Source: Escherichia coli
GTDB lineage: Bacteria > Pseudomonadota > Gammaproteobacteria > Enterobacterales > Enterobacteriaceae
NCBI RefSeq assembly: GCF_003334355.1
Contig: NZ_QOWP01000047.1
Length of the DNA: 21,171 nt
Strand: one strand, 5' to 3'
Shown here piece by piece: positions 76 through 20,288 of this stretch. The first letter of the stretch is position 1, and each line of letters opens with the position of its first letter. The position numbers were made by a program, and so were the translations under genes. The notes under the pieces were generated by a model, which was not told the origin of the DNA, made no database searches, and saw only the letters and a list, made by a program, of their open reading frames with translations.

Positions 76-156
76 ATTTAAAGGTGGTTACTGGTAGAGA
101 ACGTGAAGGATAACGTTGCGTTAGCAACGGCCCGAAGGGCGAGACGAAGTCCAGTC

Positions 157-174: not shown

Positions 175-207
175 TCCTGAATGATTAAAGCAGCATAATC
201 CCGCAAG

Positions 208-283: not shown

Positions 284-287
284 ATGT

Positions 288-314
288 AAAAAAGCGCCCT
301 AAAGGCGCTTTTTT
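288..314 (+). terminator. Intrinsic terminator of the tRNA operon
   Basis: Stem GCGCC (294-298) / GGCGC (304-308) with loop CTAAA, followed by TTTTTT (309-314), directly after the last tRNA. Confidence 0.8.
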
Positions 315-470
315 GCTATTCAGGCATCTCTCAATTTCAATTCTTGACCCTGATGACATACTCCGCGCTTGCTGCGTAAACAACTTTACGTCGGAGGAAT
401 AAGACGCAAAGTGTGGCATTCGGCATCTCATACGTAATTCGAGTGACTTTTCCCCACCATTCGACTATCT

Positions 471-488
471 TGTTTAGCATATAAAACA
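471..488. promoter_or_regulatory. Candidate NadR operator (TGTTTA-N6-AAAACA) in the nadA promoter region
   Basis: TGTTTAGCATATAAAACA lies about 75 bp upstream of the nadA ATG. It resembles the NadR box TGTTTA-N6-TAAACA as I recall it (5 of 6 in the right half-site); nadA-pnuC is the classical NadR-repressed operon. Confidence 0.55.
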
Positions 489-560
489 AATTACACCGAT
501 AACAGCGAATATTACGCTAATGTCGGTTTTAACGTTAAGCCTGTAAAACGAGATGGTAAG

Positions 561-1604
561 ATGAGCGTAATGTTTGATCCAGACACGGCGATTTATCCTT
601 TCCCCCCGAAGCCGACGCCGTTAAGCATTGATGAAAAAGCGTATTGCCGCGAGAAGATAAAACGTCTGCTAAAAGAACGTAATGCGGTGATGGTTGCCCA
701 CTACTATACCGATCCCGAAATTCAACAACTGGCAGAAGAAACCGGTGGCTGTATTTCTGATTCTCTGGAAATGGCGCGCTTCGGTGCAAAGCATCCCGCT
801 TCTACTTTGTTAGTCGCTGGGGTGAGATTTATGGGAGAAACCGCCAAAATTCTCAGTCCGGAAAAAACAATTCTGATGCCGACACTTCAGGCTGAATGTT
901 CACTGGATCTCGGCTGCCCTGTTGAAGAATTTAACGCATTTTGCGATGCCCATCCCGATCGTACTGCCGTCGTCTACGCCAACACTTCTGCTGCGGTAAA
1001 AGCGCGCGCAGATTGGGTGGTAACTTCAAGCATTGCCGTCGAACTTATTGATCATCTTGATAGTTTGGGTGAAAAAATCATCTGGGCACCCGACAAACAT
1101 CTGGGGCGTTACGTGCAAAAACAGACGGGTGGAGACATTCTATGCTGGCAGGGTGCCTGTATTGTGCATGATGAATTTAAGACTCAGGCGTTAACCCGCT
1201 TGCAAGAAGAATACCCGGATGCTGCCATACTGGTGCATCCAGAATCACCACAAGCTATTGTCGATATGGCGGATGCGGTCGGTTCCACCAGTCAACTGAT
1301 CGCTGCTGCGAAAACATTGCCACATCAGAGGCTTATTGTGGCAACCGATCGGGGTATTTTCTACAAAATGCAGCAGGCGGTGCCAGATAAAGAGTTACTG
1401 GAAGCACCAACCGCAGGTGAGGGTGCAACCTGCCGCAGCTGCGCGCATTGTCCGTGGATGGCCATGAATGGCCTTCAGGCCATCGCAGAGGCATTAGAAC
1501 AGGAAGGAAGCAATCACGAGGTTCATGTTGATGAAAGGCTGCGAGAGAGGGCGCTGGTGCCGCTCAATCGTATGCTGGATTTTGCGGCTACACTACGTGG
1601 ATAA
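561..1604 (+). CDS. nadA: Quinolinate synthase A
   Basis: 347 aa ORF; translation recognised as E. coli NadA, full length, with the C-terminal CxxC Fe-S motif (CRSCAHC). Confidence 0.96.
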
Positions 1605-1641
1605 CGAATAATAAGGCGTAACGTTACGCTTTGGGGGAAAG

Positions 1642-2361
1642 ATGGATTTTTTTAGTGTGCAGAATATCCTGGTACATATACCAATAGGGGCAGGCGGTTA
1701 TGATCTCTCATGGATCGAAGCGGTAGGCACGATCGCCGGGTTGCTGTGTATTGGCCTTGCCAGTCTGGAGAAGATCAGCAACTACTTCTTTGGCCTGATC
1801 AACGTCACCTTGTTTGGCATTATTTTCTTTCAGATTCAGCTGTATGCCAGCCTGCTATTACAGGTGTTTTTCTTTGCCGCGAATATTTACGGTTGGTATG
1901 CGTGGTCGCGACAAACCAGTCAGAACGAGGCGGAGTTGAAAATTCGCTGGTTGCCATTGCCGAAGGCACTCAGCTGGTTGGCGGTTTGCGTTGTTTCGAT
2001 TGGTCTGATGACGGTATTTATCAATCCGGTGTTTGCATTTTTGACCCGCGTGGCAGTCATGATCATGCAAGCATTAGGATTACAGGTTGTGATGCCTGAA
2101 CTGCAACCGGACGCTTTCCCGTTCTGGGATTCATGCATGATGGTGTTATCTATCGTGGCAATGATTCTGATGACGCGTAAGTATGTGGAAAACTGGCTGT
2201 TGTGGGTGATTATTAACGTGATTAGCGTCGTTATTTTTGCACTTCAGGGCGTTTACGCCATGTCTCTGGAGTACATCATCCTGACCTTTATTGCGCTCAA
2301 CGGCAGCCGGATGTGGATCAACAGCGCACGTGAAAGAGGCTCACGCGCGCTGTCCCATTAA
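1642..2361 (+). CDS. pnuC: Nicotinamide riboside transporter PnuC
   Basis: 239 aa hydrophobic multi-helix ORF recognised as E. coli PnuC; GGGGGA ribosome-binding site 6 nt upstream; 37 bp downstream of nadA, consistent with a nadA-pnuC operon. Confidence 0.95.
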
Positions 2362-3299
2362 TGGTGATGATGTGAATGGCCAGACACCCCTTCATTCAGG
2401 TGGCAGTCTGGCCCATGACAAGGTTGATATTCCATCTGAATGGTGGCGTGCTCAATCTGATAGTGATCCATCAGGTAGTGTTGGATCTGATCCAACAAGG
2501 CATCGTGATCGTGTGGCGGGATCACCTGCACATGCAACGTCATCACCGGCTTCTCGCCTACCATCCATACATGTACATGGTGCACATTGCGGACTTCCGG
2601 GATTTCCCGGCACATACGACGCTTCAGTTCAGCGATATCCAGCGATACCGGTGCACCTTCAAGTAATTCATTCACGCTATCTTTCAACAGTCGCCACGCG
2701 CTACGCAGAACCAGAAGCGACACCAGTATCGAGAGAATGGGGTCAGCAGGTGTCCAGCCAGTCCAGATAATAATCAACGCGGCAATAATAGCCCCAACCG
2801 AACCCAGCAGGTCCCCGAGCACATGCAGTGCCGCTGCTCGTACGTTGAGGTTTTTCTCTTCGCTGCCGTGATGAAGTAACCAGAAAGAAAGTATATTTGC
2901 CAGCAACCCAGCCACGGCAATTGCCATCATCATGCCGCCCTCGACCGGACGCGGCGTGCGGAAGCGTTCTATCGCCTCCCAGACAATCAAAATGGTAATT
3001 ACCACGAGGGCTATGGCATTCACAAACGCCGCGAGCGTGGTCAGTCTTAGCCAACCGAAAGTGTGGCGAATGGTGGGAGGACGACGTGAAAATTGCACGG
3101 CGAGTAGGGCGAAAAGCAGGGCGGCAGTATCGGTCAACATATGACCCGCATCGGCCAGCAATGCCAGAGAACCAGAAAGAAAACCACCAACGACTTCTAC
3201 CAGCATAAACCCGGCAGTCACGCCGAAAGCATACAACAAGCGACGAGCATTATTATCTTCTGGCAGGTGTGAGGACGTGTGTGAGTGTGAGTGCGCCAT
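2358..3299 (-). CDS. zitB: Zn(II)/H+ antiporter of the cation diffusion facilitator family, ZitB
   Basis: 313 aa ORF with His-rich N terminus ([11 protein letters not shown]) and C terminus (HSHHHH) and CDF-type transmembrane core; recognised as ZitB (YbgR). AGGGA ribosome-binding site upstream of the ATG at 3299. The 3' end overlaps the pnuC stop by 4 nt. Confidence 0.95.
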
Positions 3300-3360
3300 G
3301 ACGAGTCATCCCTTAATTATTCTCACTTAACTTTATGACATCATACTGCTTTTAGAAGTG

Positions 3361-3391
3361 AAAAATTAAAAGGGAGAGACTCCGCTCTCCC
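3361..3391 (-). terminator. Intrinsic terminator downstream of ybgS
   Basis: Stem GGGAGAG (3372-3378) / CTCTCCC (3385-3391); on the minus strand the hairpin is followed by a U-rich tract (complement of AAAAATTAAAA at 3361-3371). Confidence 0.7.
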
Positions 3392-3412
3392 ATTATTGGC
3401 TATTTTGCAGGG

Positions 3413-3793
3413 TTACTGCGTGGTACCGTCGGTTTTGGTATCGACATCATTATTGATGCCATCACCGGTTTGTACCTTTTTATTGATATCCGGACAGCGA
3501 CCATCTTTGCACATGGTGTTCTTGTGCTCTTCATCTTTGGTCATTCCGTCATTGTTCATTGAAGAACCATCCGAATGCAGCATTGTGCCGCCAGAACCGG
3601 TATTTACCCCGTTATTGTCGACGTTATTTGGCGCGACATTTTCACGGGCGTCAGGGGCTACCTGGCCCGCATCAGCTGCGGCGTTTGCCTGGCCGTTATT
3701 AGTTTGCGCTCCGCTATCGGCAGCCAGTGCGGCACCGCTGGCAAGGCTTAGAGTGGCAGTCAGAAATAATGTGGCCAGTTTTGTCATTTTCAT
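3413..3793 (-). CDS. ybgS: Uncharacterised secreted Asn/Asp/Gly-rich protein YbgS
   Basis: 126 aa ORF with a good ribosome-binding site (AACAGGAGCATCCT-ATG) and a signal-peptide-like N terminus ([26 protein letters not shown]); the mature part is low-complexity, rich in N/D/G/T. Recognised as E. coli YbgS. Confidence 0.9.
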
Positions 3794-4020
3794 AGGATGC
3801 TCCTGTTATGGTCGTTATGTCGGATAACCTCTTCCAACAGTGCATTTGCAGGTGAATATAAGGCATTGGTTTAAGATTTCAGCCAGGTTATGAAACGCAG
3901 CAGAGAATCTTGAAATAATTAACAAACAAAGGAGTTACAGTTAGAAATTGTAGGAGAGATCTCGTTTTTCGCGACAATCTGGCGTTTTTCTTGCTAATTC
4001 CAGGATTAATCCGTTCATAG

Positions 4021-4038
4021 TGTAAAACCCCGTTTACA
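4021..4038. promoter_or_regulatory. TyrR box (TGTAAA-N6-TTTACA) in the aroG promoter
   Basis: TGTAAAACCCCGTTTACA is a perfect match to the TyrR box consensus, about 70 bp upstream of the aroG ATG; aroG is a known TyrR-regulon member. Confidence 0.8.
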
Positions 4039-4108
4039 CATTCTGACGGAAGATATAGATTGGAAGTATTGCATTCACTAAGATAAGTATGGCAACACTG
4101 GAACAGAC

Positions 4109-5161
4109 ATGAATTATCAGAACGACGATTTACGCATCAAAGAAATCAAAGAGTTACTTCCTCCTGTCGCATTGCTGGAAAAATTCCCCGCTACTGAAAA
4201 TGCCGCGAATACGGTTGCCCATGCCCGAAAAGCGATCCATAAGATCCTGAAAGGTAATGATGATCGCCTGTTGGTTGTGATTGGCCCATGCTCAATTCAT
4301 GATCCTGTCGCGGCAAAAGAGTATGCCACTCGCTTGCTGGCGCTGCGTGAAGAGCTGAAAGATGAGCTGGAAATCGTAATGCGCGTCTATTTTGAAAAGC
4401 CGCGTACCACGGTGGGCTGGAAAGGGCTGATTAACGATCCGCATATGGATAATAGCTTCCAGATCAACGACGGTCTGCGTATAGCCCGTAAATTGCTGCT
4501 TGATATTAACGACAGCGGTCTGCCAGCGGCAGGTGAGTTTCTCGATATGATCACCCCACAATATCTCGCTGACCTGATGAGCTGGGGCGCAATTGGCGCA
4601 CGTACCACCGAATCGCAGGTGCACCGCGAACTGGCATCAGGGCTTTCTTGTCCGGTCGGCTTCAAAAATGGCACCGACGGTACGATTAAAGTGGCTATCG
4701 ATGCCATTAATGCCGCCGGTGCGCCGCACTGCTTCCTGTCCGTAACGAAATGGGGGCATTCGGCGATTGTGAATACCAGCGGTAACGGCGATTGCCATAT
4801 CATTCTGCGCGGCGGTAAAGAGCCTAACTACAGCGCGAAGCACGTTGCTGAAGTGAAAGAAGGGCTGAACAAAGCAGGCCTGCCAGCACAGGTGATGATC
4901 GATTTCAGCCATGCTAACTCGTCCAAACAATTCAAAAAGCAGATGGATGTTTGTGCTGACGTTTGCCAGCAGATTGCCGGTGGCGAAAAGGCCATTATTG
5001 GCGTGATGGTGGAAAGCCATCTGGTGGAAGGCAATCAGAGCCTCGAGAGCGGGGAGCCGCTGGCCTACGGTAAGAGCATCACCGATGCCTGCATCGGCTG
5101 GGAAGATACCGATGCTCTGTTACGTCAACTGGCGAATGCAGTAAAAGCGCGTCGCGGGTAA
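4109..5161 (+). CDS. aroG: 3-deoxy-D-arabino-heptulosonate-7-phosphate synthase, Phe-sensitive
   Basis: 350 aa ORF recognised as E. coli AroG (MNYQNDDLRIKEIKELLPP...), full length. Confidence 0.96.
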   Translation: MNYQNDDLRIKEIKELLPPVALLEKFPATENAANTVAHARKAIHKILKGNDDRLLVVIGPCSIHDPVAAKEYATRLLALREELKDELEIVMRVYFEKPRTTVGWKGLINDPHMDNSFQINDGLRIARKLLLDINDSGLPAAGEFLDMITPQYLADLMSWGAIGARTTESQVHRELASGLSCPVGFKNGTDGTIKVAIDAINAAGAPHCFLSVTKWGHSAIVNTSGNGDCHIILRGGKEPNYSAKHVAEVKEGLNKAGLPAQVMIDFSHANSSKQFKKQMDVCADVCQQIAGGEKAIIGVMVESHLVEGNQSLESGEPLAYGKSITDACIGWEDTDALLRQLANAVKARRG

Positions 5162-5169
5162 GGTTTAAT

Positions 5170-5246
5170 TGTCGGATGCGCCGTCAGAGTGGCGTATCCG
5201 ATGAATCACCACAGGCCTGATAAGTCGCGCAGCGTCGCATCAGGCA
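5170..5246. repeat. Two REP (palindromic unit) elements in opposite orientation, BIME-like
   Basis: TCGGATGCGCC...GGCGTATCCGA (about 5172-5202) and GCCTGATAAGTCGCGCAGCGTCGCATCAGGC (about 5213-5246) match the E. coli REP consensus families (GCCGGATGCGGCG... / GCCTGATGCGACGC...) and form imperfect palindromes. Confidence 0.75.
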
Positions 5247-5265
5247 ATGTGCTCCATTGTTAGCA

Positions 5266-5305
5266 ACAAAAAAGCCGACTCACTTGCAGTCGGCTTTCTC
5301 ATTTT
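5266..5305. terminator. Bidirectional intrinsic terminator between convergent aroG and gpmA
   Basis: Stem AGCCGACT (5273-5280) / AGTCGGCT (5288-5295) with loop CACTTGC, flanked by an A-run on the left and a T-rich tract on the right, so it is followed by U-runs on both strands. Confidence 0.8.
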
Positions 5306-5318
5306 AAACGAATGACGT

Positions 5319-6071
5319 TTACTTCGCTTTACCCTGGTTTGCAACCGCCGCTGCTTTCGCTGCGATCTCGTCAGCATTACCCAGATAATAGCGTTTCAGC
5401 GGTTTGAAATTCTCGTCGAACTCATACACCAGCGGCACGCCAGTCGGGATATTAAGCTCAAGAATCTCTTCTTCGCTCATGTTATCAAGATATTTCACCA
5501 GCGCACGTAAAGAGTTACCGTGTGCAGCGATGATCACGCGCTCACCGCTCTTCATACGCGGCAGAATAGTTTCATTCCAGTAAGGGATCACGCGGTCAAT
5601 GGTCAGCGCCAGGCTTTCCGTCAGCGGCAGTTCTTTCTCGCTCAGTTTCGCGTAACGCGGATCGTGACCCGGATAACGCTCATCATCTTTAGTCAGTTCC
5701 GGCGGAGTCACTGCAAAACCACGACGCCACTGTTTCACCTGCTCGTCGCCATACTTTTCAGCAGTTTCCGCTTTGTTCAGACCCTGCAACGCACCGTAGT
5801 GACGTTCGTTCAGTTTCCAGGATTTCTCAACGGGCAGCCATGCCTGATCCAGTTCGTCCAGCACATTCCACAGGGTATGGATAGCGCGTTTCAGCACAGA
5901 AGTGTAAGCAAAGTCAAAGCTGTAACCTTCCTCTTTCAGCAGCTTACCTGCTGCTTTTGCTTCGCTTACGCCTTTCTCAGACAGATCCACGTCGTACCAA
6001 CCGGTGAAACGGTTTTCTTTGTTCCACTGACTTTCGCCATGACGAACCAGAACCAGCTTAGTTACAGCCAT
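5319..6071 (-). CDS. gpmA: 2,3-bisphosphoglycerate-dependent phosphoglycerate mutase
   Basis: Translation recognised as GpmA ([25 protein letters not shown]...), 250 aa. The ORF-track entry (5319..6086) extends 5 codons to an upstream TTG; the ATG at 6071 is preceded by a GAGGAG ribosome-binding site and matches the known N terminus. Confidence 0.94.
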
Positions 6072-6095
6072 ATACTTACTCCTCAAATCATCTTT

Positions 6096-6117
6096 TAATG
6101 ATAATAATTCTCATTAT
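6096..6117. promoter_or_regulatory. Fur-box-like AT-rich hexamer array in the gpmA promoter
   Basis: TAATGATAATAATTCTCATTAT lies about 25-45 bp upstream of the gpmA ATG and resembles the Fur consensus GATAATGATAATCATTATC; gpmA is, as I recall, a reported Fur target. Confidence 0.5.
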
Positions 6118-6247
6118 ATTGCCGCGACGAAGCAACAGCAATGCTTACGCATAACCATAGCGAAAATAGTGGCGCAGTGTAAGGTTGTTGTGAATATTGA
6201 GTTGCAAATATGTCGGTGTTTGCTGGTGATTTGAACAATATGAGATA

Positions 6248-6268
6248 AAGCCCTCATGACGAGGGCTT
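6248..6268 (-). terminator. Probable terminator hairpin downstream of galM (end of the gal operon)
   Basis: Stem AAGCCCTC (6248-6255) / GAGGGCTT (6261-6268), loop ATGAC, immediately after the galM stop at 6273; the downstream U-tract on the minus strand is only moderate. Confidence 0.45.
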
Positions 6269-6272
6269 AACA

Positions 6273-7313
6273 TTACTCAGCAATAAACTGATATTCCGTC
6301 AGGCTGGAATACTCTTCGCCAGGACGCAGGAAGCAGTCCGGTTGCGGCCATTCAGGGTGGTTCGGGCTGTCCGGTAGAAACTCGCTTTCCAGAGCCAGCC
6401 CTTGCCAGTCGGCGTAAGGTTCGGTTCCCCGCGACGGTGTGCCGCCGAGGAAGTTGCCGGAGTAGAATTGCAGAGCCGGAGCGGTGGTGTAGACCTTCAG
6501 CTGCAATTTTTCATCTGCTGACCAGACATGCGCCGCCACTTTCTTGCCATCGCCTTTGGCCTGTAACAAGAATGCGTGATCGTAACCTTTCACTTTGCGC
6601 TGATCGTCGTCGGCAAGAAACTCACTGGCGATGATTTTGGCGCTGCGGAAATCAAAAGACGTTCCGGCGACAGATTTCAGGCCGTCGTGCGGAATGCCGC
6701 CTTCATCAACCGGCAGATATTCGTCCGCCAGAATCTGCAACTTGTGATTGCGCACGTCAGACTGCTCGCCGTCAAGATTGAAATAGACGTGATTAGTCAT
6801 ATTCACCGGGCAAGGTTTATCAACTGTGGCGCGATAAGTAATGGAGATACGGTTATCGTCGGTCAGACGATATTGCACCGTCGCGCCGAGATTACCCGGG
6901 AAGCCCTGATCACCATCATCTGAACTCAGGGCAAACAGCACCTGACGATCGTTCTGGTTCACAATCTGCCAGCGACGTTTGTCGAACCCTTCCGGCCCGC
7001 CGTGCAGCTGGTTAACGCCCTGACTTGGCGAAAGCGTCACGGTTTCACCGTCAAAGGTATAACGGCTATTGGCGATACGGTTGGCATAACGACCAATAGA
7101 GGCCCCCAGAAACGCGGCCTGATCCTGATAGCATTCCGGGCTGGCACAGCCGAGCAGCGCCTCGCGGACGCTGCCATCGGAAAGCGGAATACGGGCGGAA
7201 AGTAAAGTCGCACCCCAGTCCATCAGCGTGACTACCATCCCTGCGTTGTTACGCAAAGTTAACAGTCGGTACGGCTGACCATCGGGTGCCAGTGCGGGAG
7301 TTTCGTTCAGCAC
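6273..7313 (-). CDS. galM: Aldose 1-epimerase (galactose mutarotase)
   Basis: 346 aa ORF recognised as GalM; its start overlaps the galK 3' end by 7 nt. Confidence 0.95.
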
Positions 7314-8455
7314 TGTCCTGCTCCTTGTGATGGTTTACAAACGTAAAAAGTCTCTTTAATACCTGTTTTTGCTTCATATTGTTCAGCGACAGCTTGCTGT
7401 ACGGCAGGCACCAGCTCTTCCGGGATCAGCGCGACGATACAGCCGCCAAATCCGCCGCCGGTCATGCGTACGCCACCTTTGTCGCCAATCACAGCTTTGA
7501 CGATTTCTACCAGAGTGTCAATTTGCGGCACGGTGATTTCGAAATCATCGCGCATAGAGGCATGAGACTCCGCCATCAACTCGCCCATACGTTTCAGGTC
7601 GCCTTGCTCCAGCGCGCTGGCAGCTTCAACGGTGCGGGCGTTTTCAGTCAGTATATGACGCACGCGTTTTGCCACGATCGGGTCCAGTTCATGCGCAACA
7701 GCGTTGAACTCTTCAATGGTGACATCACGCAGGGCTGGCTGCTGGAAGAAACGCGCACCGGTTTCGCACTGTTCACGACGGGTGTTGTATTCGCTGCCAA
7801 CCAGGGTACGTTTGAAGTTACTGTTGATGATGACGACAGCCACACCTTTGGGCATGGAAACTGCTTTGGTCCCCAGTGAGCGGCAATCGATCAGCAAGGC
7901 ATGATCTTTCTTGCCGAGCGCGGAAATTAGCTGATCCATGATCCCGCAGTTACAGCCTACAAACTGGTTTTCTGCTTCCTGACCGTTAAGCGCGATTTGT
8001 GCGCCGTCCAGCGGCAGATGATAAAGCTGCTGCAATACGGTTCCGACCGCGACTTCCAGTGAAGCGGAAGAACTTAACCCGGCACCCTGCGGCACATTGC
8101 CGCTGATCACCATGTCCACGCCGCCGAAGCTGTTGTTACGCAGTTGCAGATGTTTCACCACGCCACGAACGTAGTTAGCCCATTGATAGTTTTCATGTGC
8201 GACAATGGGCGCATCGAGGGAAAACTCGTCGAGCTGATTTTCATAATCGGCTGCCATCACGCGAACTTTACGGTCATCGCGTGGTGCACAACTGATCACG
8301 GTTTGATAATCAATCGCGCAGGGCAGAACGAAACCGTCGTTGTAGTCGGTGTGTTCACCAATCAAATTCACGCGGCCAGGCGCCTGAATGGTGTGAGTGG
8401 CAGGGTAGCCAAATGCGTTGGCAAACAGAGATTGTGTTTTTTCTTTCAGACTCAT
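7307..8455 (-). CDS. galK: Galactokinase
   Basis: 382 aa ORF recognised as GalK, full length, with the GHMP kinase motif ([11 protein letters not shown]); GGAG ribosome-binding site upstream. Confidence 0.96.
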
Positions 8456-8458
8456 TTC

Positions 8459-9505
8459 TTACACTCCGGATTCGCGAAAATGGATATCGCTGACTGCGCG
8501 CAAACGCTCTGCTGCCTGTTCTGCGGTCAGGTCTCGCTGGGTCTCTGCCAGCATTTCATAACCAACCATAAATTTACGTACGGTGGCGGAGCGCAGCAGA
8601 GGCGGATAAAAGTGCGCGTGCAGCTGCCAGTGTTGATTCTCTTCGCCATTAAATGGCGCGCCGTGCCAGCCCATAGAGTAGGGGAAGGAGCACTGGAAGA
8701 GGTTGTCATAACGACTGGTCAGCTTTTTCAACGCCAGCGCCAGATCGCTGCGCTGGGCGTCGGTCAAATCGGTGATCCGTAAAACGTGGGCTTTGGGCAG
8801 CAGTAGCGTTTCGAACGGCCAGGCAGCCCAGTAAGGCACGACGGCTAACCAGTGTTCGGTTTCGACAACGGTACGGCTACCGTCTGCCAGCTCGCGCTGA
8901 ACATAATCCACCAGCATTGGTGATTTCTGTTCGGCAAAATATTCTTTTTGCAGGCGGTCTTCGCGCTCAGCTTCGTTAGGCAGGAAGCTATTTGCCCAAA
9001 TCTGACCGTGCGGATGCGGGTTAGAGCAGCCCATCGCCGCGCCTTTGTTTTCAAAAACCTGCACCCATGGGTACGTTTTCCCCAGTTCTGCGGTTTGCTC
9101 CTGCCAGGTTTTGACGATTTCCGTCAATGCTGCAACGCTGAGCTCTGGCAGCGTTTTACTGTGATCCGGTGAAAAGCAGATCACCCGGCTGGTGCCGCGC
9201 GCGCTCTGGCAACGCATCAGCGGATCGTGACTTTCTGGCGCATCTGGCGTGTCAGACATCAAAGCCGCAAAGTCATTAGTGAAAACGTAAGTCCCGGTGT
9301 AATCGGGGTTTTTATCGCCTGTCACCCGCACATTACCTGCGCAGAGGAAGCAATCTGGATCGTGCGCAGGTAACACCTGTTTGGCTGGCGTTTCCTGCGC
9401 CCCCTGCCAGGGGCGCTTAGCGCGGTGCGGTGAAACCAGAATCCATTGCCCGGTGAGCGGGTTGTAGCGGCGATGTGGATGATCAACGGGATTAAATTGC
9501 GTCAT
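8459..9505 (-). CDS. galT: Galactose-1-phosphate uridylyltransferase
   Basis: 348 aa ORF recognised as GalT, including the HPH active-site motif ([11 protein letters not shown]); AAGGAA ribosome-binding site; 3 bp from galK. Confidence 0.96.
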
Positions 9506-9514
9506 GGTCGTTCC

Positions 9515-10531
9515 TTAATCGGGATATCCCTGTGGATGGCGTGACTGCCAGTGCCAGGTGTCCTGCGCCATTTCATCGAGTGTGCGCGTTACGCGCCAGT
9601 TCAGTTCACGGTCGGCTTTGCTGGCGTCCGCCCAGTAGGCCGGAAGGTCGCCCTCGCGACGCGGTGCAAAATGATAATTAACCGGTTTGCCGCAGGCTTT
9701 GCTGAAGGCATTAACCACGTCCAGCACGCTGTTGCCTACGCCAGCGCCGAGGTTGTAGATGTGTACGCCTGGCTTGTTCGCCAGTTTTTCCATCGCCACG
9801 ACGTGACCGTCCGCCAGATCCATTACGTGGATGTAATCGCGTACGCCAGTACCATCTTCGGTCGGATAATCGTTACCAAAAATCGCCAGCGAGTCGCGAC
9901 GGCCTACAGCAACCTGGGCGATGTATGGCATCAGGTTATTCGGAATGCCTTGCGGATCTTCGCCCATATCGCCCGACGGATGCGCGCCAACCGGGTTGAA
10001 GTAGCGCAGCAGGGCAATGCTCCAGTCCGGCTGGGCTTTTTGCAGATCGGTGAGGATCTGTTCCACCATCAGCTTGCTTTTGCCGTAAGGGCTTTGCGGT
10101 GTGCCGGTCGGGAAGCTTTCAACGTATGGAATTTTGGGCTGATCGCCATAAACGGTGGCGGAGGAGCTAAAAATAAAGTTTTTGACGTTAGCGGCGCGCA
10201 TGGCGCTAATCAGGCGCAGAGTGCCGTTGACATTGTTGTCGTAATATTCCAGCGGTTTTTGTACCGATTCGCCCACGGCTTTCAGCCCGGCGAAGTGGAT
10301 CACGGTGTCGATAGCGTGATCGTGCAGGATCTCGGTCATCAACGCTTCGTTACGAATATCGCCTTCAACAAACGTTGGATGTTTGCCGCCTAAACGCTCG
10401 ATAACAGGCAGTACGCTGCGCTTACTGTTACAGAGGTTATCAAGAATGATGACATCATGACCGTTTTGCAGTAATTGCACACAGGTATGACTTCCAATGT
10501 AACCGCTACCACCGGTAACCAGAACTCTCAT
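9515..10531 (-). CDS. galE: UDP-glucose 4-epimerase
   Basis: 338 aa, MRVLVTGGSGYIGSHTCVQLL... (Rossmann GxxGxxG motif). The ORF-track entry (to 10573) extends 14 codons into the gal promoter; the ATG at 10531 follows a GGAG ribosome-binding site and matches known GalE. Confidence 0.95.
   Translation of the reverse strand: MRVLVTGGSGYIGSHTCVQLLQNGHDVIILDNLCNSKRSVLPVIERLGGKHPTFVEGDIRNEALMTEILHDHAIDTVIHFAGLKAVGESVQKPLEYYDNNVNGTLRLISAMRAANVKNFIFSSSATVYGDQPKIPYVESFPTGTPQSPYGKSKLMVEQILTDLQKAQPDWSIALLRYFNPVGAHPSGDMGEDPQGIPNNLMPYIAQVAVGRRDSLAIFGNDYPTEDGTGVRDYIHVMDLADGHVVAMEKLANKPGVHIYNLGAGVGNSVLDVVNAFSKACGKPVNYHFAPRREGDLPAYWADASKADRELNWRVTRTLDEMAQDTWHWQSRHPQGYPD
10497..10512. promoter_or_regulatory. 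gal internal operator OI (GalR/GalS site) inside the 5' end of galE
   Basis: The minus strand reads GTGGTAGCGGTTACAT, matching the known OI sequence and the GalR operator consensus GTGnAAnCGnTTnCAC; located about 20-35 bp inside the galE coding sequence. Confidence 0.8.
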
Positions 10532-10555
10532 AATTCGCTCCATTAGGCTTATGGT

Positions 10556-10608
10556 ATGAAATAACCATAGCATAACAAAGATGCGAAAAGTGTGACATGG
10601 AATAAATT
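10556..10608 (-). promoter_or_regulatory. gal P1/P2 overlapping promoters with CRP site
   Basis: The minus strand reads ...AATTTATTCCATGTCACACTTTTCGCATCTTTGTTATGCTATGGTTATTTCATACC..., the classical gal promoter sequence with TGTGA-containing CRP site (about 10587-10608) and overlapping -10 elements (TATGCTATGGTTAT). Confidence 0.85.
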
Positions 10609-10609
10609 A

Positions 10610-10625
10610 GTGGAATCGTTTACAC
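10610..10625. promoter_or_regulatory. gal external operator OE (GalR/GalS site)
   Basis: The minus strand reads GTGTAAACGATTCCAC, matching the known OE sequence and the GalR operator consensus. Confidence 0.85.
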
Positions 10626-10702
10626 AAGAATTTAGCCGTTTTTTATGCGCGATTAAGTGATTATAAAACAGAGGGTTTATGAATGATTGCGCTTTTTATC
10701 TG

Positions 10703-10774
10703 AAAAAAAGACGCGGTTTAATGCCTGCATGCGTCGAACCGTTGGCCGGAGAGGGCGCTTAGGCCGCCTCCGGC
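10703..10774 (-). terminator. Probable modF terminator region (two stem-loops; the distal one is followed by a U7 tract)
   Basis: GC-rich hairpin GCCGGAG...CTCCGGC (10745-10774) directly after the modF stop, then a second hairpin GACGC...GCGTC followed by TTTTTTT on the minus strand (complement of the A-run at 10703-10709). Confidence 0.45.
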
Positions 10775-10792
10775 AAGGTCAGCACTACCGAC

Positions 10793-12265
10793 TCAATATA
10801 TTTTTGTCAGCACATAGCGATAGAGTCCACCGTCCGGCACGAACTCAAGGCGATGGGTAATACAGGCAGGCGCATCTTCAGCGTGGTGCGAAACAAACAA
10901 CAATTGCGTTTCACCTTCGCTAATCAGCACATCAACAAAACGGCGGATAAGCTGGCGATTGAGCGGATCAAGCCCCTGTAGTGGTTCATCGAGAATAAGC
11001 AACGTCGGATGTTTCACCAGTGCGCGGACGATCAGCGCCAGACGCTGCTGTCCCCAGGAAAGACTATGGAACGGAGCGTCAGCCGTGCGTTTATCAATGC
11101 CGAGAATATCCAGCCACTGCTGCACCAGTTTTTGCTGGCGATCCGAAACGGCCTGATAAATGCCAATCGAATCAAAATAGCCAGAAAGAATCACATTACG
11201 CACGGTAGTGCTGACCCGGTAATCCAGATGCAAACTACTGCTGACGTAACCGATATGCTTTTTGATATCCCAGATGGTTTCGCCGCTGCCGCGACGTCGG
11301 CCGAAAAGCGTCAAATCGTTGCTGTAACCTTGCGGATGATCGCCAGTAATCAGGCTTAATAACGTCGATTTTCCCGCGCCATTTGGCCCGACAATTTGCC
11401 AGTGTTCGCCTGGATTCACCTGCCAGCTAAGGTTATTAAGAATGGGGCGATCATTATAAGAAACCACGCCATTGTTCAGCACAATGCGCGATTCGTTGGC
11501 GGGTAAGGCGTGACGTGCTGAAGGTTCATCCGGCTCCGGCAGTTGCACACCTTCAAGCTGTTCACTATGCGCAAGTTGCGCGACGAGTGCTTGCTGGAGC
11601 AGTTCCTCTTTAGCGCCAGTTTCCGCTAACGTACAATCCGCCAGCACGCCAGCAAACTGGACAAATTCCGGGATCTCATCGAAGCGATTGAGCACCAGTA
11701 CCAAAGTAATACCGGACTGATGTAACGAGGCGAGTCGCTCAGCCAGCTGCTGACGTGAGGCAACATCCAGGCCATCGAACGGCTCATCAAGAATCAACAA
11801 GTCAGGCTCCGACATCAGCGCCTGACACAGCAGGGTTTTTCGCGTCTCGCCAGTGGAAAGGTATTTAAAGCGTCGGTCGAGGAGGGCGGTAATACCGAAC
11901 TGCTGCGCCAGTTGCATGCAACGCGGTGCATCCTTTACTTCATCCTGAATAATCTCAGCCGTAGTGCGTCCGGTGTCATCTTCGCCAGGGCCGAGCATAT
12001 CGGTGTTATTCCGTTGCCATTCGTCGCTGACGAGCTTTTGCAATTGCTCGAAGGAGAGACGAGTGATGTGGGAAAACTGGCTTTGCCGTTCACCTTTCAA
12101 AAGCGGAAGTTCCCCCGCCAGCGCGCGGGCCAGCGCCGACTTTCCACTTCCATTCGAACCGACAAACGCCCAACTATCACCCGCGTTTAACGTTAGCTGA
12201 GGCAATTGCAGCGTTTTTGTGTCGCTAAGACGAAACGTGCCTTGCAAAATTTGCAACGATGACAT
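10793..12265 (-). CDS. modF: ABC-type ATPase ModF (two nucleotide-binding domains, molybdate-related)
   Basis: Two Walker A motifs (GSNGSGKS, GPNGAGKS) and two ABC signature/Walker B regions; recognised as ModF, 490 aa starting MSSLQ. The ORF track starts 4 codons earlier (12277); neither start has a strong ribosome-binding site, so the start is chosen by agreement with the known protein. Confidence 0.9.
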   Translation of the reverse strand: MSSLQILQGTFRLSDTKTLQLPQLTLNAGDSWAFVGSNGSGKSALARALAGELPLLKGERQSQFSHITRLSFEQLQKLVSDEWQRNNTDMLGPGEDDTGRTTAEIIQDEVKDAPRCMQLAQQFGITALLDRRFKYLSTGETRKTLLCQALMSEPDLLILDEPFDGLDVASRQQLAERLASLHQSGITLVLVLNRFDEIPEFVQFAGVLADCTLAETGAKEELLQQALVAQLAHSEQLEGVQLPEPDEPSARHALPANESRIVLNNGVVSYNDRPILNNLSWQVNPGEHWQIVGPNGAGKSTLLSLITGDHPQGYSNDLTLFGRRRGSGETIWDIKKHIGYVSSSLHLDYRVSTTVRNVILSGYFDSIGIYQAVSDRQQKLVQQWLDILGIDKRTADAPFHSLSWGQQRLALIVRALVKHPTLLILDEPLQGLDPLNRQLIRRFVDVLISEGETQLLFVSHHAEDAPACITHRLEFVPDGGLYRYVLTKIY

Positions 12266-12332
12266 TTTATATCCCATTTTGTGCAGCGATTACTGACAGG
12301 GATACGTGTTTCATAACAAATTGTCAACACGC

Positions 12333-13121
12333 TTAGCACAGCGTGGCGATAATCACGCTGTCGGCATTAAAGTAGGCCGTGACATTCTGCCCTTGCTGAA
12401 GAGAAGTCGCTTCATTTACCGGCACTGTGGCGCACAGTGTTTGCCCGTCGGGTAGCGCCATTAATACTTCGCACTGCTCTGCGCCGCGCTCAATATGACT
12501 AATAATACCCGGTAATTGGTTGTCGGCGTTTTGTGCGACCGCTTCGTCCTGAGTAATGCCTACCCACGGCGCTTTTAGCAATATCAACACTTCTTTGCCT
12601 TCATCCAGCCCCAGACGTGCGCCGCTTTGTGCGGTAATTGCGACTTTCAGGCGTGTTTTTCCGTCAGCCAGTAAGACATCAACATGCTGTTGAACGTCAT
12701 CATGATCGCGGGCGGTGATGGTACCGAACCACTGGTTACGGGCGCTGGTTTGCAGTGAAAAACGTGAGATCGCGGCCAGCAGGCTGTTCAGCGGCAGGGC
12801 GTCATCGTCACTTAACACATCAAAGGCTTTTTGCTGGATTTGCGCCAGTAAGTCATAGAGCTGAATCAGTCGCTGACCATAGCGGGTCAGTACTGCGCCT
12901 CCGCCACCTTTACCGCCTGTTGCGCGCTCAACCAGAATATGCTCGCTTAACTGATTCATCTCGTTAATGGCATCCCAGGCGCTTTTATAGCTGATACCGG
13001 CATCTTTCGCTCCCTGGCTAATGGAACCGGAAAGCGCAATGTGTTTTAGTAGCGAAATGCGGCGCGGGTCGGCGAATAATTTTTGTTGGAGCTTAAGGGT
13101 GAGAAGGATTTCGGCCTGCAT
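12333..13121 (-). CDS. modE: Molybdate-responsive transcriptional regulator ModE
   Basis: 262 aa ORF recognised as ModE (N-terminal HTH, C-terminal Mop domains); upstream of modF in the same orientation (modEF operon). Confidence 0.95.
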   Translation of the reverse strand: MQAEILLTLKLQQKLFADPRRISLLKHIALSGSISQGAKDAGISYKSAWDAINEMNQLSEHILVERATGGKGGGGAVLTRYGQRLIQLYDLLAQIQQKAFDVLSDDDALPLNSLLAAISRFSLQTSARNQWFGTITARDHDDVQQHVDVLLADGKTRLKVAITAQSGARLGLDEGKEVLILLKAPWVGITQDEAVAQNADNQLPGIISHIERGAEQCEVLMALPDGQTLCATVPVNEATSLQQGQNVTAYFNADSVIIATLC

Positions 13122-13231
13122 AACAATGTCCTGGCAAAAGTCTTATTGTGACGGAAAACGAACGCCACGCAAAGCTGACCGCACAAAAGGGGAGTGCTTT
13201 TCTGTGCTTAGCGGTTAGAATAGTCTCATGA

Positions 13232-13399
<168 letters not shown>

Positions 13400-13406
13400 T
13401 TCCCTG

Positions 13407-13437
13407 AATGCCCGCTTAGTCGGGCATTTTCTTTTTC
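13407..13437 (+). terminator. Intrinsic terminator of acrZ
   Basis: Stem AATGCCCG (13407-13414) / CGGGCATT (13421-13428), loop CTTAGT, followed by TTTTCTTTTT. Confidence 0.8.
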
Positions 13438-13521
13438 TCAACTTCCTGCTTTTCCTGCCGATATTTTTTCTTATCTACCTCACAAAGGTTAGCAATAACT
13501 GCTGGGAAAATTCCGAGTTAG

Positions 13522-13545
13522 TCGTTATATTGTCGCCTACATAAC
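13522..13545. promoter_or_regulatory. ModE operator at the modA promoter
   Basis: CGTTATATTGTCGCCTACATAACG has inverted-repeat arms CGTTAT / ATAACG about 20 bp upstream of the modA ATG; it matches the known ModE-molybdate binding site of modABC. Confidence 0.8.
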
Positions 13546-13565
13546 GTTACATTAAGGGGTTACCA

Positions 13566-14339
13566 ATGGCTCGTAAATGGTTGAACTTGTTTGCCGGGGC
13601 GGCACTCTCTTTCGCTGTTGCTGGCAATGCACTGGCAGATGAAGGGAAAATCACGGTGTTCGCCGCCGCATCACTGACTAACGCAATGCAGGACATTGCT
13701 ACGCAGTTTAAAAAAGAGAAAGGCGTGGATGTGGTTTCTTCTTTCGCTTCGTCATCTACTCTCGCCCGTCAGATTGAAGCGGGTGCGCCTGCGGATCTGT
13801 TTATTTCTGCCGATCAGAAATGGATGGATTATGCGGTTGATAAAAAAGCGATCGATACAGCTACGCGTCAGACACTGCTCGGCAATAGCCTGGTCGTTGT
13901 AGCACCGAAAGCCAGCGTGCAGAAAGATTTCACCATCGACAGCAAAACCAACTGGACTTCACTGCTGAATGGCGGTCGCCTGGCGGTTGGCGATCCGGAA
14001 CATGTTCCCGCTGGCATTTATGCAAAAGAAGCACTGCAAAAACTGGGCGCATGGGATACGCTCTCTCCGAAACTGGCCCCAGCGGAAGATGTTCGTGGGG
14101 CGCTGGCGCTGGTCGAACGTAACGAAGCGCCTCTGGGCATTGTCTACGGTTCTGACGCAGTTGCCAGCAAAGGGGTAAAAGTGGTTGCCACCTTCCCGGA
14201 AGATTCACATAAAAAAGTGGAATATCCGGTTGCTGTTGTGGAAGGGCATAACAATGCGACAGTGAAAGCATTTTATGATTATCTGAAGGGACCGCAGGCA
14301 GCGGAAATCTTTAAACGTTACGGATTTACAATCAAGTAA
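13566..14339 (+). CDS. modA: Molybdate ABC transporter periplasmic binding protein
   Basis: 257 aa ORF with signal peptide (MARKWLNLFAGAALSFAVAGNALA/DEG); recognised as ModA; AAGGGG ribosome-binding site. Confidence 0.96.
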   Translation: MARKWLNLFAGAALSFAVAGNALADEGKITVFAAASLTNAMQDIATQFKKEKGVDVVSSFASSSTLARQIEAGAPADLFISADQKWMDYAVDKKAIDTATRQTLLGNSLVVVAPKASVQKDFTIDSKTNWTSLLNGGRLAVGDPEHVPAGIYAKEALQKLGAWDTLSPKLAPAEDVRGALALVERNEAPLGIVYGSDAVASKGVKVVATFPEDSHKKVEYPVAVVEGHNNATVKAFYDYLKGPQAAEIFKRYGFTIK

Positions 14340-15028
14340 TGATACTGACCGATCCAGAATGGCAGGCAGTTTTATTAAGCCTGAAAGTTTCTTCCCTGGC
14401 TGTGCTGTTTAGCCTGCCGTTTGGGATCTTTTTTGCCTGGTTACTGGTGCGTTGCACGTTTCCGGGCAAAGCTCTGCTCGACAGCGTACTGCATCTACCG
14501 CTGGTGTTACCGCCCGTGGTCGTCGGTTACTTATTATTAGTTTCGATGGGACGGCGCGGATTTATCGGTGAACGTCTGTATGACTGGTTTGGTATTACCT
14601 TCGCCTTTAGCTGGCGCGGCGCGGTTCTCGCTGCCGCCGTCATGTCGTTTCCGCTGATGGTGCGGGCAATTCGTCTGGCGCTGGAAGGGGTTGATGTCAA
14701 ACTGGAACAGGCCGCAAGAACACTGGGGGCCGGGCGCTGGCGCGTTTTCTTTACTATCACGTTACCGCTGACCTTACCGGGAATTATTGTTGGTACGGTA
14801 CTGGCTTTTGCTCGTTCTCTCGGTGAGTTTGGTGCAACCATCACCTTTGTGTCGAACATTCCTGGTGAAACGCGAACCATTCCTTCTGCCATGTATACCC
14901 TGATCCAGACCCCCGGCGGGGAAAGTGGAGCGGCGAGACTGTGCATTATTTCTATTGCGCTGGCGATGATCTCCCTGTTGATTTCAGAATGGCTGGCCAG
15001 AATCAGCCGTGAACGGGCGGGGCGCTAA
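14339..15028 (+). CDS. modB: Molybdate ABC transporter permease
   Basis: 229 aa ORF; its ATG overlaps the modA stop (TAATG); recognised as ModB (ABC permease with EAA loop region). Confidence 0.96.
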
Positions 15029-15030
15029 TC

Positions 15031-16089
15031 ATGCTGGAACTGAATTTTTCCCAGACGTTGGGCAACCATTGCCTGACTATTAATGAAACGCTGCCCGCCA
15101 ATGGCATCACTGCTATCTTTGGCGTCTCCGGTGCCGGAAAAACTTCGCTGATTAACGCCATCAGTGGACTGACGCGCCCGCAAAAAGGGCGGATTGTCCT
15201 CAATGGGCGGGTACTAAATGATGCCGAAAAAGGTATCTGCCTGACGCCGGAAAAGCGTCGCGTTGGCTATGTTTTTCAGGATGCGCGGCTGTTCCCGCAT
15301 TACAAAGTGCGTGGCAATCTGCGCTACGGCATGTCGAAAAGTATGGTCGATCAGTTCGATAAGCTGGTGGCGCTTTTAGGCATTGAACCGTTGCTTGACC
15401 GTTTACCAGGCAGCCTGTCCGGAGGCGAAAAACAGCGCGTGGCGATTGGTCGGGCTTTGCTGACAGCACCGGAATTGCTGTTGCTGGATGAACCGCTGGC
15501 GTCACTGGATATTCCGCGTAAACGCGAACTGTTGCCTTATCTGCAACGGCTGACACGGGAAATCAACATTCCGATGTTGTATGTCAGCCATTCGCTGGAT
15601 GAGATCCTCCATCTGGCAGACAGAGTGATGGTACTGGAAAACGGTCAGGTGAAAGCCTTTGGCGCGCTGGAGGAAGTGTGGGGCAGTAGCGTGATGAATC
15701 CGTGGCTGCCGAAAGAGCAACAAAGTAGCATTCTGAAAGTGACGGTGCTTGAGCATCATCCGCATTACGCGATGACCGCGCTGGCGCTGGGCGATCAGCA
15801 TTTGTGGGTCAATAAGCTGGACGAACCGCTGCAAGCTGCGCTACGTATCCGCATTCAGGCTTCCGATGTTTCTCTGGTTTTACAACCGCCGCAGCAAACC
15901 AGCATTCGTAACGTATTGCGGGCAAAAGTTGTTAATAGTTATGACGACAACGGCCAGGTGGAAGTGGAACTGGAAGTCGGCGGTAAAACGCTGTGGGCGC
16001 GTATCAGCCCGTGGGCCAGGGATGAACTGGCGATCAAACCAGGCCTGTGGCTGTACGCGCAAATTAAAAGTGTGTCGATAACCGCCTGA
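15031..16089 (+). CDS. modC: Molybdate ABC transporter ATP-binding protein
   Basis: 352 aa ORF with Walker A (GVSGAGKTS), ABC signature (LSGGEKQRV), Walker B (LLLLDEP) and a C-terminal Mop/TOBE-type domain; recognised as ModC. Confidence 0.96.
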
Positions 16090-16908
16090 TTAAATCAGGT
16101 GGCTATAAATGAATTGGGCAATGCTGTCGGTGGTGTTATCACCAATCACAATGTTGGCGCGCGCTTTTACCGCGTCATCGGCGTTGCCCATCGCCACGCC
16201 TGTACCAGCGGCTTCCAGCATACTGATATCATTAAAGTTATCGCCGAATGCCACGACGTTTTCCATCGACCAACCTTGCGCCTCAACCCATTTCGTCAAA
16301 CGTTTACCTTTGCTGTTGCCGCCGCGTGCAATATCAACCTGATCGTGCCAGGACCATTCACACTCCAGTCCCAGTTCATGTTCGACATGCTTACCAAAAT
16401 GCTGCAATTGCGGCAGGTCATCGTGCGTCAGGGCGAACTTCCATACGGCGTTAACTTGTTGCGCCGTTTCAGCCAGAGAAGCGACTTGTGTGAAAGTCGG
16501 ACGCTGTTCCGGCGGCAGGGTTTGCGCCCAGTTAGATGTGCGAATGACATGCCCGGTCGGGTGCTCATAGACCATTGCATCATCGACATACATCAGACCG
16601 TGAATGTGGTGTTCATTCAGCATCTCAATGAGTTGCAGGGCTTTAATAACGGGCATTGGGTCCGCTTCCAGCACGGTTTTTGCATGATAATCATACAAAT
16701 AGGTGCCATTACAGCAAATAGCAGGTGTATCCAGCGCCAGCGCCTGATAAAAAGGATGAATAGCGACGTGATGGCGACCTGTGACGATGATTAATTGATA
16801 GCCTGCTTCGCGAGCGCGGGCCAGGGCTTCTATCGATGAAGGAAGCAGGGTCTTTTTCGGGGTCAATAAGGTGCCGTCTAAGTCGAGAGCAATCACGCGT
16901 GTGGTCAT
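16090..16908 (-). CDS. ybhA: HAD-superfamily (Cof-type) sugar-phosphate / pyridoxal-phosphate phosphatase
   Basis: 272 aa starting MTTRVIALDLDGTLL (HAD motif I DxDGT). The ORF track extends 34 codons upstream (17010); the trimmed start matches known YbhA. Confidence 0.92.
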   Translation of the reverse strand: MTTRVIALDLDGTLLTPKKTLLPSSIEALARAREAGYQLIIVTGRHHVAIHPFYQALALDTPAICCNGTYLYDYHAKTVLEADPMPVIKALQLIEMLNEHHIHGLMYVDDAMVYEHPTGHVIRTSNWAQTLPPEQRPTFTQVASLAETAQQVNAVWKFALTHDDLPQLQHFGKHVEHELGLECEWSWHDQVDIARGGNSKGKRLTKWVEAQGWSMENVVAFGDNFNDISMLEAAGTGVAMGNADDAVKARANIVIGDNTTDSIAQFIYSHLI

Positions 16909-17026
16909 GGCGTATTCCAGATTAAGGTTAAGAATTTTCGTCTGCGCGAATGGTACACCGATACCACTATCGGACAAAATTCTGCGTTTTAATTCAGCAT
17001 TCACCGCCAAAAGCGACTAATTTTAG

Positions 17027-18058
<1,032 letters not shown>

Positions 18059-18070
18059 CCGCTGATTTAC

Positions 18071-18094
18071 CCGGCGCAGTCTCTCCTGCGCCGG
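18071..18094. terminator. GC-rich stem-loop between convergent pgl and ybhD (possible shared terminator)
   Basis: CCGGCGCAG (18071-18079) / CTGCGCCGG (18086-18094) form a 9-bp stem with loop TCTCTC; no strong U-tract on either side, so it may be rho-dependent or only a stabilising hairpin. Confidence 0.4.
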
Positions 18095-18098
18095 TGTA

Positions 18099-19052
18099 TT
18101 AACCTATCTCCTGTAACGCGTGTCTCTGGCGTTCGACGATATTGGTCCACAAATTGTCTTTATCGTCAGTCCATAAATTAATCAGCAAGGCAAAAAAGCG
18201 TTCTGCTGCTGGAGAAAGTACGGCATCTTTACGGCGAATTATTCCCAATGTTCGACGTATAACGGGTTCCACCAATGGGATACCAATAATCGAAGAATAG
18301 GGCGCATGAGGCATTGCCAGGCCAGGAAGCGCCGAAATCCCCAGTCCCGCCTCCACCAGTCCTAATGACGTCGAAAGATGACGCACTTCGTAAAACCAGT
18401 CCAGCTTCCAGGGCTTGTCGGCCAGCTGTTGTTCTATCAACAGTCGGTTGCCGCTGGAGGAGCGTACGCCAATCATTTTGTAACCCACTAACTCCTGCCA
18501 TTCTACAAGCTGCTTTTTGGCCAATGGATGGTCACGCCGACAGGCCAGCACGAACGGCTCGTTGACCAGTGGGGTAAAATCAATGGATGAATTTGTGACG
18601 TTGTTCATGTTTATGCCAAAGTCTGATTCGTTACACAGCACCGATTCCATGCAATTATTCGTGCCTTGTTCCAGAATCCGCACTTTAATATTGGGATACA
18701 GCTCATTAAATTTACCGATTGCCAGCGGTAAAAAATAAAATACTGCGGTCGGAATACACGCTAACGTCACCATACCACGATGATAAGCATTCATATCACG
18801 AATATTAAAAAGCGTTTCATCGAATTTCTTTATTAATTCCCGCGCCTCCGGGAGCAACCTTTTTCCTGCTTTTGTTAACGTAACCTTGCGAGTTGTACGC
18901 TCAAATAGTTGAATATGTAAATCTTCCTCCATCTTTTTTATTCTTCGCGTTAATGCAGGTTGCGTAATATTGAGTAATTTAGCGGCATTGTTAAACGAAC
19001 TGGACTCTGCCAGTATGACAAATGCCTTCATACTTGATAATTCATGCTTCAT
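18099..19052 (-). CDS. ybhD: LysR-family transcriptional regulator (uncharacterised)
   Basis: 317 aa starting MKHELSSMKAFVILAESSSFNNAAKLLNITQPALTRRIKKME (LysR HTH); GGAG ribosome-binding site upstream of the ATG at 19052. The ORF track extends 21 codons further (19115) with no support. Confidence 0.9.
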   Translation of the reverse strand: MKHELSSMKAFVILAESSSFNNAAKLLNITQPALTRRIKKMEEDLHIQLFERTTRKVTLTKAGKRLLPEARELIKKFDETLFNIRDMNAYHRGMVTLACIPTAVFYFLPLAIGKFNELYPNIKVRILEQGTNNCMESVLCNESDFGINMNNVTNSSIDFTPLVNEPFVLACRRDHPLAKKQLVEWQELVGYKMIGVRSSSGNRLLIEQQLADKPWKLDWFYEVRHLSTSLGLVEAGLGISALPGLAMPHAPYSSIIGIPLVEPVIRRTLGIIRRKDAVLSPAAERFFALLINLWTDDKDNLWTNIVERQRHALQEIG

Positions 19053-19235
19053 TATTACTCCGGAAAATGGAAGCGACGATTTTGGGTGGCTGGCCGTTAA
19101 AAATTTTAACTGCATTTAGCCAACTTAAATTAATGAAAAAATGTTATTAATCGTTGAGCTAAAGTCATTAGAGATGCTTTGCCCTTAATGTAACCATATC
19201 GCAATAAGTTATGTTTTTAAATTGAGGGCATTATT

Positions 19236-20288
19236 ATGAAAAAAATACCCTGCGTGATGATGCGAGGTGGAACCTCGAGGGGCGCGTTCCTGTTAGCGGA
19301 ACATTTACCCGAAGATCAAACGCAGCGCGATAAAATATTGATGGCAATTATGGGTTCCGGTAACGATCTGGAAATTGACGGTATTGGCGGCGGTAATCCA
19401 CTGACCAGTAAAGTCGCCATTATTAGCCGTTCCAGCGATCCGCGTGCTGATGTCGATTATCTGTTTGCGCAGGTAATCGTTCATGAGCAACGTGTCGATA
19501 CCACGCCTAACTGCGGCAATATGCTGTCTGGTGTTGGGGCATTCGCCATTGAAAATGGTTTGATTGCAGCGACTTCGCCAGTTACTCGCGTACGTATCCG
19601 CAACGTCAATACGGGTACGTTCATCGAAGCTGATGTGCAAACGCCAAATGGTGTTGTCGAGTACGAGGGTAGCGCCAGAATTGACGGCGTACCGGGTACT
19701 GCCGCACCGGTTGCGCTCACTTTCCTGAATGCCGCTGGAACCAAAACCGGAAAAGTTTTCCCGACTGATAATCAGATTGATTATTTTGACGATGTCCCGG
19801 TGACCTGTATCGATATGGCGATGCCAGTCGTCATTATTCCGGCTGAATATCTGGGAAAAACAGGTTATGAATTACCGGCGGAACTGGATGCCGACAAAGC
19901 ATTATTAGCCCGCATTGAATCTATCCGTCTACAAGCGGGTAAAGCAATGGGCTTAGGTGATGTCAGTAATATGGTTATCCCTAAACCTGTGCTTATTTCT
20001 CCAGCGCAGAAAGGCGGGGCAATTAATGTGCGTTATTTTATGCCGCATTCTTGCCATCGCGCGCTGGCGATAACCGGTGCTATTGCTATTTCCAGTAGTT
20101 GTGCATTGGAAGGCACCGTCACCCGACAAATCGTCCTTTCTGTAGGATACGGCAATATCAATATTGAACACCCCAGTGGTGCGCTCGACGTTCATTTAAG
20201 TAATGAAGGTCAGGATGCCACGACGTTACGCGCATCTGTTATTCGGACGACCAGAAAAATATTTTCCGGTGAAGTTTATCTTCCCTGA
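19236..20288 (+). CDS. ybhH: PrpF / methylaconitate-isomerase-like putative isomerase (diaminopimelate-epimerase fold)
   Basis: 350 aa ORF; GAGGG ribosome-binding site; contains a TPNCGNM motif reminiscent of the catalytic Cys region of the PrpF/DapF-like fold; recognised as E. coli YbhH. Confidence 0.9.
   Translation: MKKIPCVMMRGGTSRGAFLLAEHLPEDQTQRDKILMAIMGSGNDLEIDGIGGGNPLTSKVAIISRSSDPRADVDYLFAQVIVHEQRVDTTPNCGNMLSGVGAFAIENGLIAATSPVTRVRIRNVNTGTFIEADVQTPNGVVEYEGSARIDGVPGTAAPVALTFLNAAGTKTGKVFPTDNQIDYFDDVPVTCIDMAMPVVIIPAEYLGKTGYELPAELDADKALLARIESIRLQAGKAMGLGDVSNMVIPKPVLISPAQKGGAINVRYFMPHSCHRALAITGAIAISSSCALEGTVTRQIVLSVGYGNINIEHPSGALDVHLSNEGQDATTLRASVIRTTRKIFSGEVYLP

Follow-up and report, generated by a model that had tools for sequence, protein, structure and literature searches.

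Results

The gal operon and its control region

We analysed a stretch of 21,171 nucleotides of Escherichia coli DNA (contig NZ_QOWP01000047.1 of assembly GCF_003334355.1), called the window in what follows. It carries the galactose operon galETKM, preceded by a control region (10497..10625) in which two GalR operators flank a cAMP-CRP site and the overlapping promoters P1 and P2 (Table 1). The whole gal system lies on the minus strand, which the first-pass annotation had not mentioned, and the operator sequences are quoted as read on that strand, in reverse complement to the strand given. Gene order and coordinates were transferred from the annotation of K-12 MG1655 (NC_000913.3). The RefSeq annotation of a 100%-identical locus, that of isolate RM9088, also lists galE, galT, galK and galM. 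A direct test of the reading frames found all four genes to be full length, with no internal stop, as expected from the first-pass annotation, which had reported four complete genes and no gross lesion in galE or galK. The list of open reading frames also offered a 352-residue galE starting at an in-frame ATG in the promoter region (10573). We rejected it as a mechanical artefact of that list, the true start being at 10531.

Table 1. Features of the gal operon and its control region. Positions are those of the window; numbers with a sign are relative to the P1 start (+1).
Feature	Position	Strand	Sequence	Remarks
OE, external GalR/GalS operator	10610..10625	-	GTGTAAACGATTCCAC	centre 10617.5 (-60.5); exact, single occurrence in the window
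cAMP-CRP site, 22-mer	10588..10609	-	TAATTTATTCCATGTCACACTT	centre -41.5; one good TCACA half-site; identical to MG1655
galP2 extended -10	10569..10577	-	TGTTATGCT	computed position; no variation in the 7-sequence alignment
galP1 extended -10	10564..10572	-	TGCTATGGT	computed position; overlaps the P2 element
P2 start	10562 (-5)	-	A	predicted from sequence identity to MG1655
P1 start	10557 (+1)	-	A	predicted from sequence identity to MG1655
HU region at the loop apex, approximate	10541..10561	-		centre +6.5 (about 10551.5); extent is an approximation; predicted, sequence identical to MG1655
galE Shine-Dalgarno	10538..10541	-	GGAG	
galE start	10529..10531 (+27)	-	ATG	aligns with the MG1655 galE start
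OI, internal GalR operator inside galE	10497..10512	-	GTGGTAGCGGTTACAT	centre 10504.5 (+53.5); exact, single occurrence in the window
galE, UDP-glucose 4-epimerase	9515..10531	-		338 aa; nucleotide and protein sequences identical to MG1655 b0759
galT, galactose-1-phosphate uridylyltransferase	8459..9505	-		348 aa; identical to MG1655 b0758
galK, galactokinase	7307..8455	-		382 aa; identical to MG1655 b0757
galM, galactose-1-epimerase (mutarotase)	6273..7313	-		346 aa; GTG start overlaps the galK end; identical to MG1655 b0756
Hairpin just past the galM stop	6249..6267	-	AGCCCTC-GTCAT-GAGGGCT, then TTTATCT	candidate intrinsic terminator of the operon

Comparison with MG1655 and strain background

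The window was compared base by base with MG1655 (NC_000913.3) by BLAST alignment. Over the aligned span (266..21094) there were 85 differences in 20,829 columns, all of them outside the gal genes and their control region. These differences were clustered, with 30 in the spacer between the tRNA cluster and nadA (104 bp, 329..432), 40 in modF-modE (10703..12993, about 1.7%) and 10 in a segment of about 200 bp in pgl (17743..17938), and the long tracts between the clusters were identical to MG1655. The 9.7-kb block that runs from nadA to 78 bp upstream of OE (968..10702) showed one difference from K-12. Judged by its sequence, the source strain is not K-12. Its closest match was a human isolate, PSS-12 (100.0% identity over 1..21094), and the crow isolate RM9088 was 100% identical to it over the gal segment.

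At the left end of the window, the MG1655 alignment broke and overlapped, 1..319 and 266..21094 being recovered as separate pieces. This suggests that the repeat and spacer layout of the tRNA cluster differs between the two strains. Positions 1-319 lie in the tRNA-Lys/Val cluster, where two tRNAs and an RtT element (Rfam RF00391, 7..174) were the only Rfam matches; when the window was searched with Rfam, no match was found in the gal region.

The last 77 bases of the window (21095-21171) belong to an IS10-family element, of which they form the outer end. The element is inserted in ybhI (20364 onwards), with the junction at 21094/21095. The insertion shortens the ybhI open reading frame to 244 aa. 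In PSJ-23, a Tn10-like tet(B) unit has one IS10 copy to which the 77-base tail was identical (77/77; L005:19265-19341); the tail matched the other IS10 copy of that unit (L005:29747-29671) and the end of an ISVsa5 in CUPF06 (L003:20140-20216) at 73 of 77 positions each. In PSJ-23 and CUPF06, IS10/Tn10 sits in ybhD, whereas the window element is in ybhI, at a site where PSS-12 contains no IS. Only one end of the element lies inside the window, and both a lone IS10 and a full Tn10 are compatible with it.

The patchy divergence (no differences in 968..6266 and 6268..10702, compared with 40 in 10703..12993) and the presence of an IS10-type end in ybhI, about 10.5 kb from galE, could be taken to mean that the strain was constructed by introducing the gal segment of K-12 into a different background, as in a P1 transduction that makes use of a Tn10 or IS10 marker close by. 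However, the DNA by the IS junction is not that of K-12 (differences at 20137 and 20423), and the same mosaic is found in nature, in the human isolate PSS-12, which is devoid of the IS. The gal segment itself occurs unchanged in the wild isolate RM9088, and IS10/Tn10 copies are natural in this neighbourhood in other isolates. We therefore consider a construct to be very unlikely. Phylogroup-A-like strains of E. coli normally show such patchy identity to one another, and because a mosaic of this kind is what homologous recombination among related lineages of the species usually leaves behind, we did not read laboratory construction into it. The divergent patches are probably recombination patches.

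The left edge of the modF-modE patch falls 78 bp upstream of OE, within the modF-galE spacer. The chances seem to us evenly balanced that this edge marks a homologous-recombination boundary, so that the gal operon would move between E. coli lineages together with its control region, as a single unit. If true, this would be an ordinary population-genetic pattern, involving no new mechanism.

Sequence of the gal genes and their surroundings

Between 6268 and 10702, a segment that covers galM, galK, galT, galE and the control region, no difference from MG1655 was found. The identity reaches the edge of the modF-modE patch at one end and the galM stop codon at the other. This bears on the possibility that galE, galT, galK or an operator carries a cryptic laboratory allele, such as a small indel or a point mutation. 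Laboratory strains do carry lesions of this kind, as illustrated by RV308 with an IS2 in its gal leader, but the alignment refutes such an allele here: the four proteins are identical to those of MG1655 and uninterrupted, and galE, galT, galK and galM are free of nonsense, missense and insertion alleles. We regard the idea as having a vanishingly small probability. The first-pass annotation had judged the locus intact at the level of gross structure, and had proposed the comparison with MG1655; its reading is now supported for every base. It had also set the strain apart from many laboratory strains. This contrast holds in that no laboratory gal allele is present, but its relevance is limited, as the background is not K-12.

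The transcription unit differs from that of MG1655 at a single position, 6267, which lies six bases beyond the galM stop codon; the window has A and K-12 has C there (gal sense). The change allows additional pairing at the base of the hairpin stem (Table 1), and folding of the hairpin gave -13.6 kcal/mol in the window compared with -11.7 kcal/mol in MG1655. A generic terminator scan did not call this galM 3' hairpin, though it is visible in the sequence. Both Rho-independent and Rho-dependent termination at the gal end are mentioned in a preprint (bioRxiv 10.1101/2024.10.01.616006).

On the other side of the operon, a T-run in the modF-galE spacer is longer by one T (gal sense) than in MG1655, at 10703 (about -146), and the spacer has substitutions at 10720, 10756 and 10760. 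The number of T residues in this run (10700-10712, minus strand) differs between strains: MG1655 has 6, the window 7 and an ST131 strain 8. Ahead of the run lie GC-rich inverted repeats (GCCGGAG...CTCCGGC, 10740-10770), and it is there that most of the natural variation is concentrated. The T-run and the inverted repeats may represent the terminator region of modF.

Operators and promoters

The GalR operator consensus is GTGNAANCGNTTNCAC, also written GTGNAANC.GNTTNCAC (PMC5110547). OE matched GTGNAANCGNTTNCAC without mismatch, and OI has two mismatches (positions 5 and 16), just as in wild-type K-12. OI extends from the last base of codon 7 to the first base of codon 13 of galE, within Gly-Gly-Ser-Gly-Tyr-Ile. 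Computed from the coordinates, the spacing between the operators is exactly 113 bp, centre to centre. The start of P1 was derived independently from OE (taken at -60.5) and from OI (taken at +53.5), and both gave an A at 10557. The extended -10 elements of P1 and P2 are offset by 5 bp, P2 being the upstream one. HU binding is set by DNA architecture, not by sequence.

These positions agree with the published ones, OE and OI being located at -60.5 and +53.5, with their centres 113 bp (about 11 helical turns) apart, the CRP site at -41.5 and the galE ATG at +27 (PMC4693257), and P1, P2 and the HU site at +1, -5 and +6.5, respectively (PMC5110547). Furthermore, in a genome scan based on information theory, the two strongest gal sites were those at 792028 and 792141 of MG1655, 113 bp apart (PMC5110547), and the alignment of the window with MG1655 showed that they correspond to OI and OE, respectively. 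The first-pass annotation had proposed that both operators, the CRP site and the -10 elements of P1 and P2 were all present, with a canonical spacing of about 113 bp; both operators matched exactly, and all of these elements are identical to those of MG1655.

With up to 3 mismatches, the degenerate consensus gave 13 matches in the window, compared with 10.4 expected by chance, so that weak matches alone are meaningless. As their number was at the chance level, we rejected the 11 matches other than OE and OI as operators. Two of these 11, one in gpmA (6004..6019) and one in galE (9831..9846), correspond to weak sites of the published in-silico scan (PMC5110547); they too are at the chance level here. 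A merely coincidental resemblance of the OE and OI motifs in unrelated DNA can nevertheless be dismissed outright: they have 0 and 2 mismatches, the published spacing and the proper location upstream of and inside galE, an exact 16-mer is expected by chance about 1e-5 times in 21 kb, and the 221-bp region around them (10480..10700) is 100% identical to MG1655 and to many other E. coli.

A generic sigma-70 scan of 10400..10850 did not call any promoter. This was expected because the scan needs a match to the -35 element, while both gal promoters are of the extended -10 type with a poor -35, as described for P1 (PMC3488240). We accordingly did not accept the missing call as evidence against the gal promoters, nor does the scan lend them positive support.

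Conservation among E. coli genomes

The 4.6-kb gal segment had matches in all of the 5426 complete E. coli genomes searched, and at least 80% of it was covered in 5388. The 221-bp control region was found in 5392 of the 5426 genomes, and 3906 showed at least 99% identity; in a sample of 25 rows drawn at even intervals from the ranking, 13 were 100% identical. To this sample belong the five lower-identity versions (98.2–99.5%) that we aligned with the window and MG1655. In this 7-sequence alignment, the 129-bp core from OE to OI contained 3 variable columns, compared with 34 in the 175 bp upstream of OE. One of the three core variants affects position 13 of OE (a degenerate N of the consensus) and the other two are synonymous changes in codons 5 and 6 of galE. 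No variation was observed in the CRP site, the P2 -10 element or OI. The pattern fits purifying selection on the control elements, in a sample that is small and was chosen by ourselves.

In K-12 strain RV308, the match was limited to the first 148 bases of the query, that is, up to about window position 10553 (roughly +5 of P1). The annotation of this strain (NZ_LM995446.1, 754196-760343) places an IS2 between modF and galE (L004:3160-4388).

Discussion

The gal control region is among the most thoroughly characterised in bacteria, and an intact copy is expected in E. coli. The segment 10497..10625 is, on the strength of its sequence, almost certainly the wild-type galETKM regulatory region of E. 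coli, followed by an intact wild-type operon. No feature of the sequence speaks against this reading. The feature is thus already known, an ordinary instance of the textbook gal control region. The worth of the result lies in annotation and quality control, in that the gal locus of this strain carries neither marker nor lesion.

The mechanism that we propose is carried over from the literature on the identical sequence (PMC4693257, PMC5110547, PMC3119520). In the absence of D-galactose, GalR dimers would bind to OE and OI. With HU bound near +6.5 and the DNA supercoiled, the two operator-bound dimers would associate to form a loop of 113 bp (about 11 turns), the 'repressosome', which would constrain P1 and P2 topologically and thereby repress both. 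[quoted passage not shown] At -41.5, cAMP-CRP is predicted to activate P1 and repress P2. D-galactose would free the operators of GalR and of the isorepressor GalS.

All the cis elements that such a mechanism calls for are present in the window sequence, unaltered and correctly spaced. An intact locus is no proof of a Gal+ phenotype, because galR, galS, crp, hupAB, galP/mgl and galU are outside the window. The genes for GalR, GalS, CRP and HU are far from gal in E. coli, and they are to be expected in any strain of this species.

The closest known system is the galETKM control region of K-12 MG1655, with its GalR-HU repressosome; the gal system was characterised in this background. The window has the same operators, the same 113-bp spacing, the same promoter layout and the same position of the ATG, with no difference within the system. 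RV308 shares the locus and its flanks, but there an IS2, probably the classical galOP-308::IS2 allele, separates the promoters from galE, whereas the window is free of this insertion. In the more distant galETK operon of Yersinia pestis, two operators also surround the gal promoter, and the GalR of that species regulates the E. coli region in vitro; its operators are 1 bp closer to each other, only the P1 equivalent is active and repression is independent of HU (PMC3119520). The two-operator arrangement is common to both systems, and the window displays the full E. coli arrangement.
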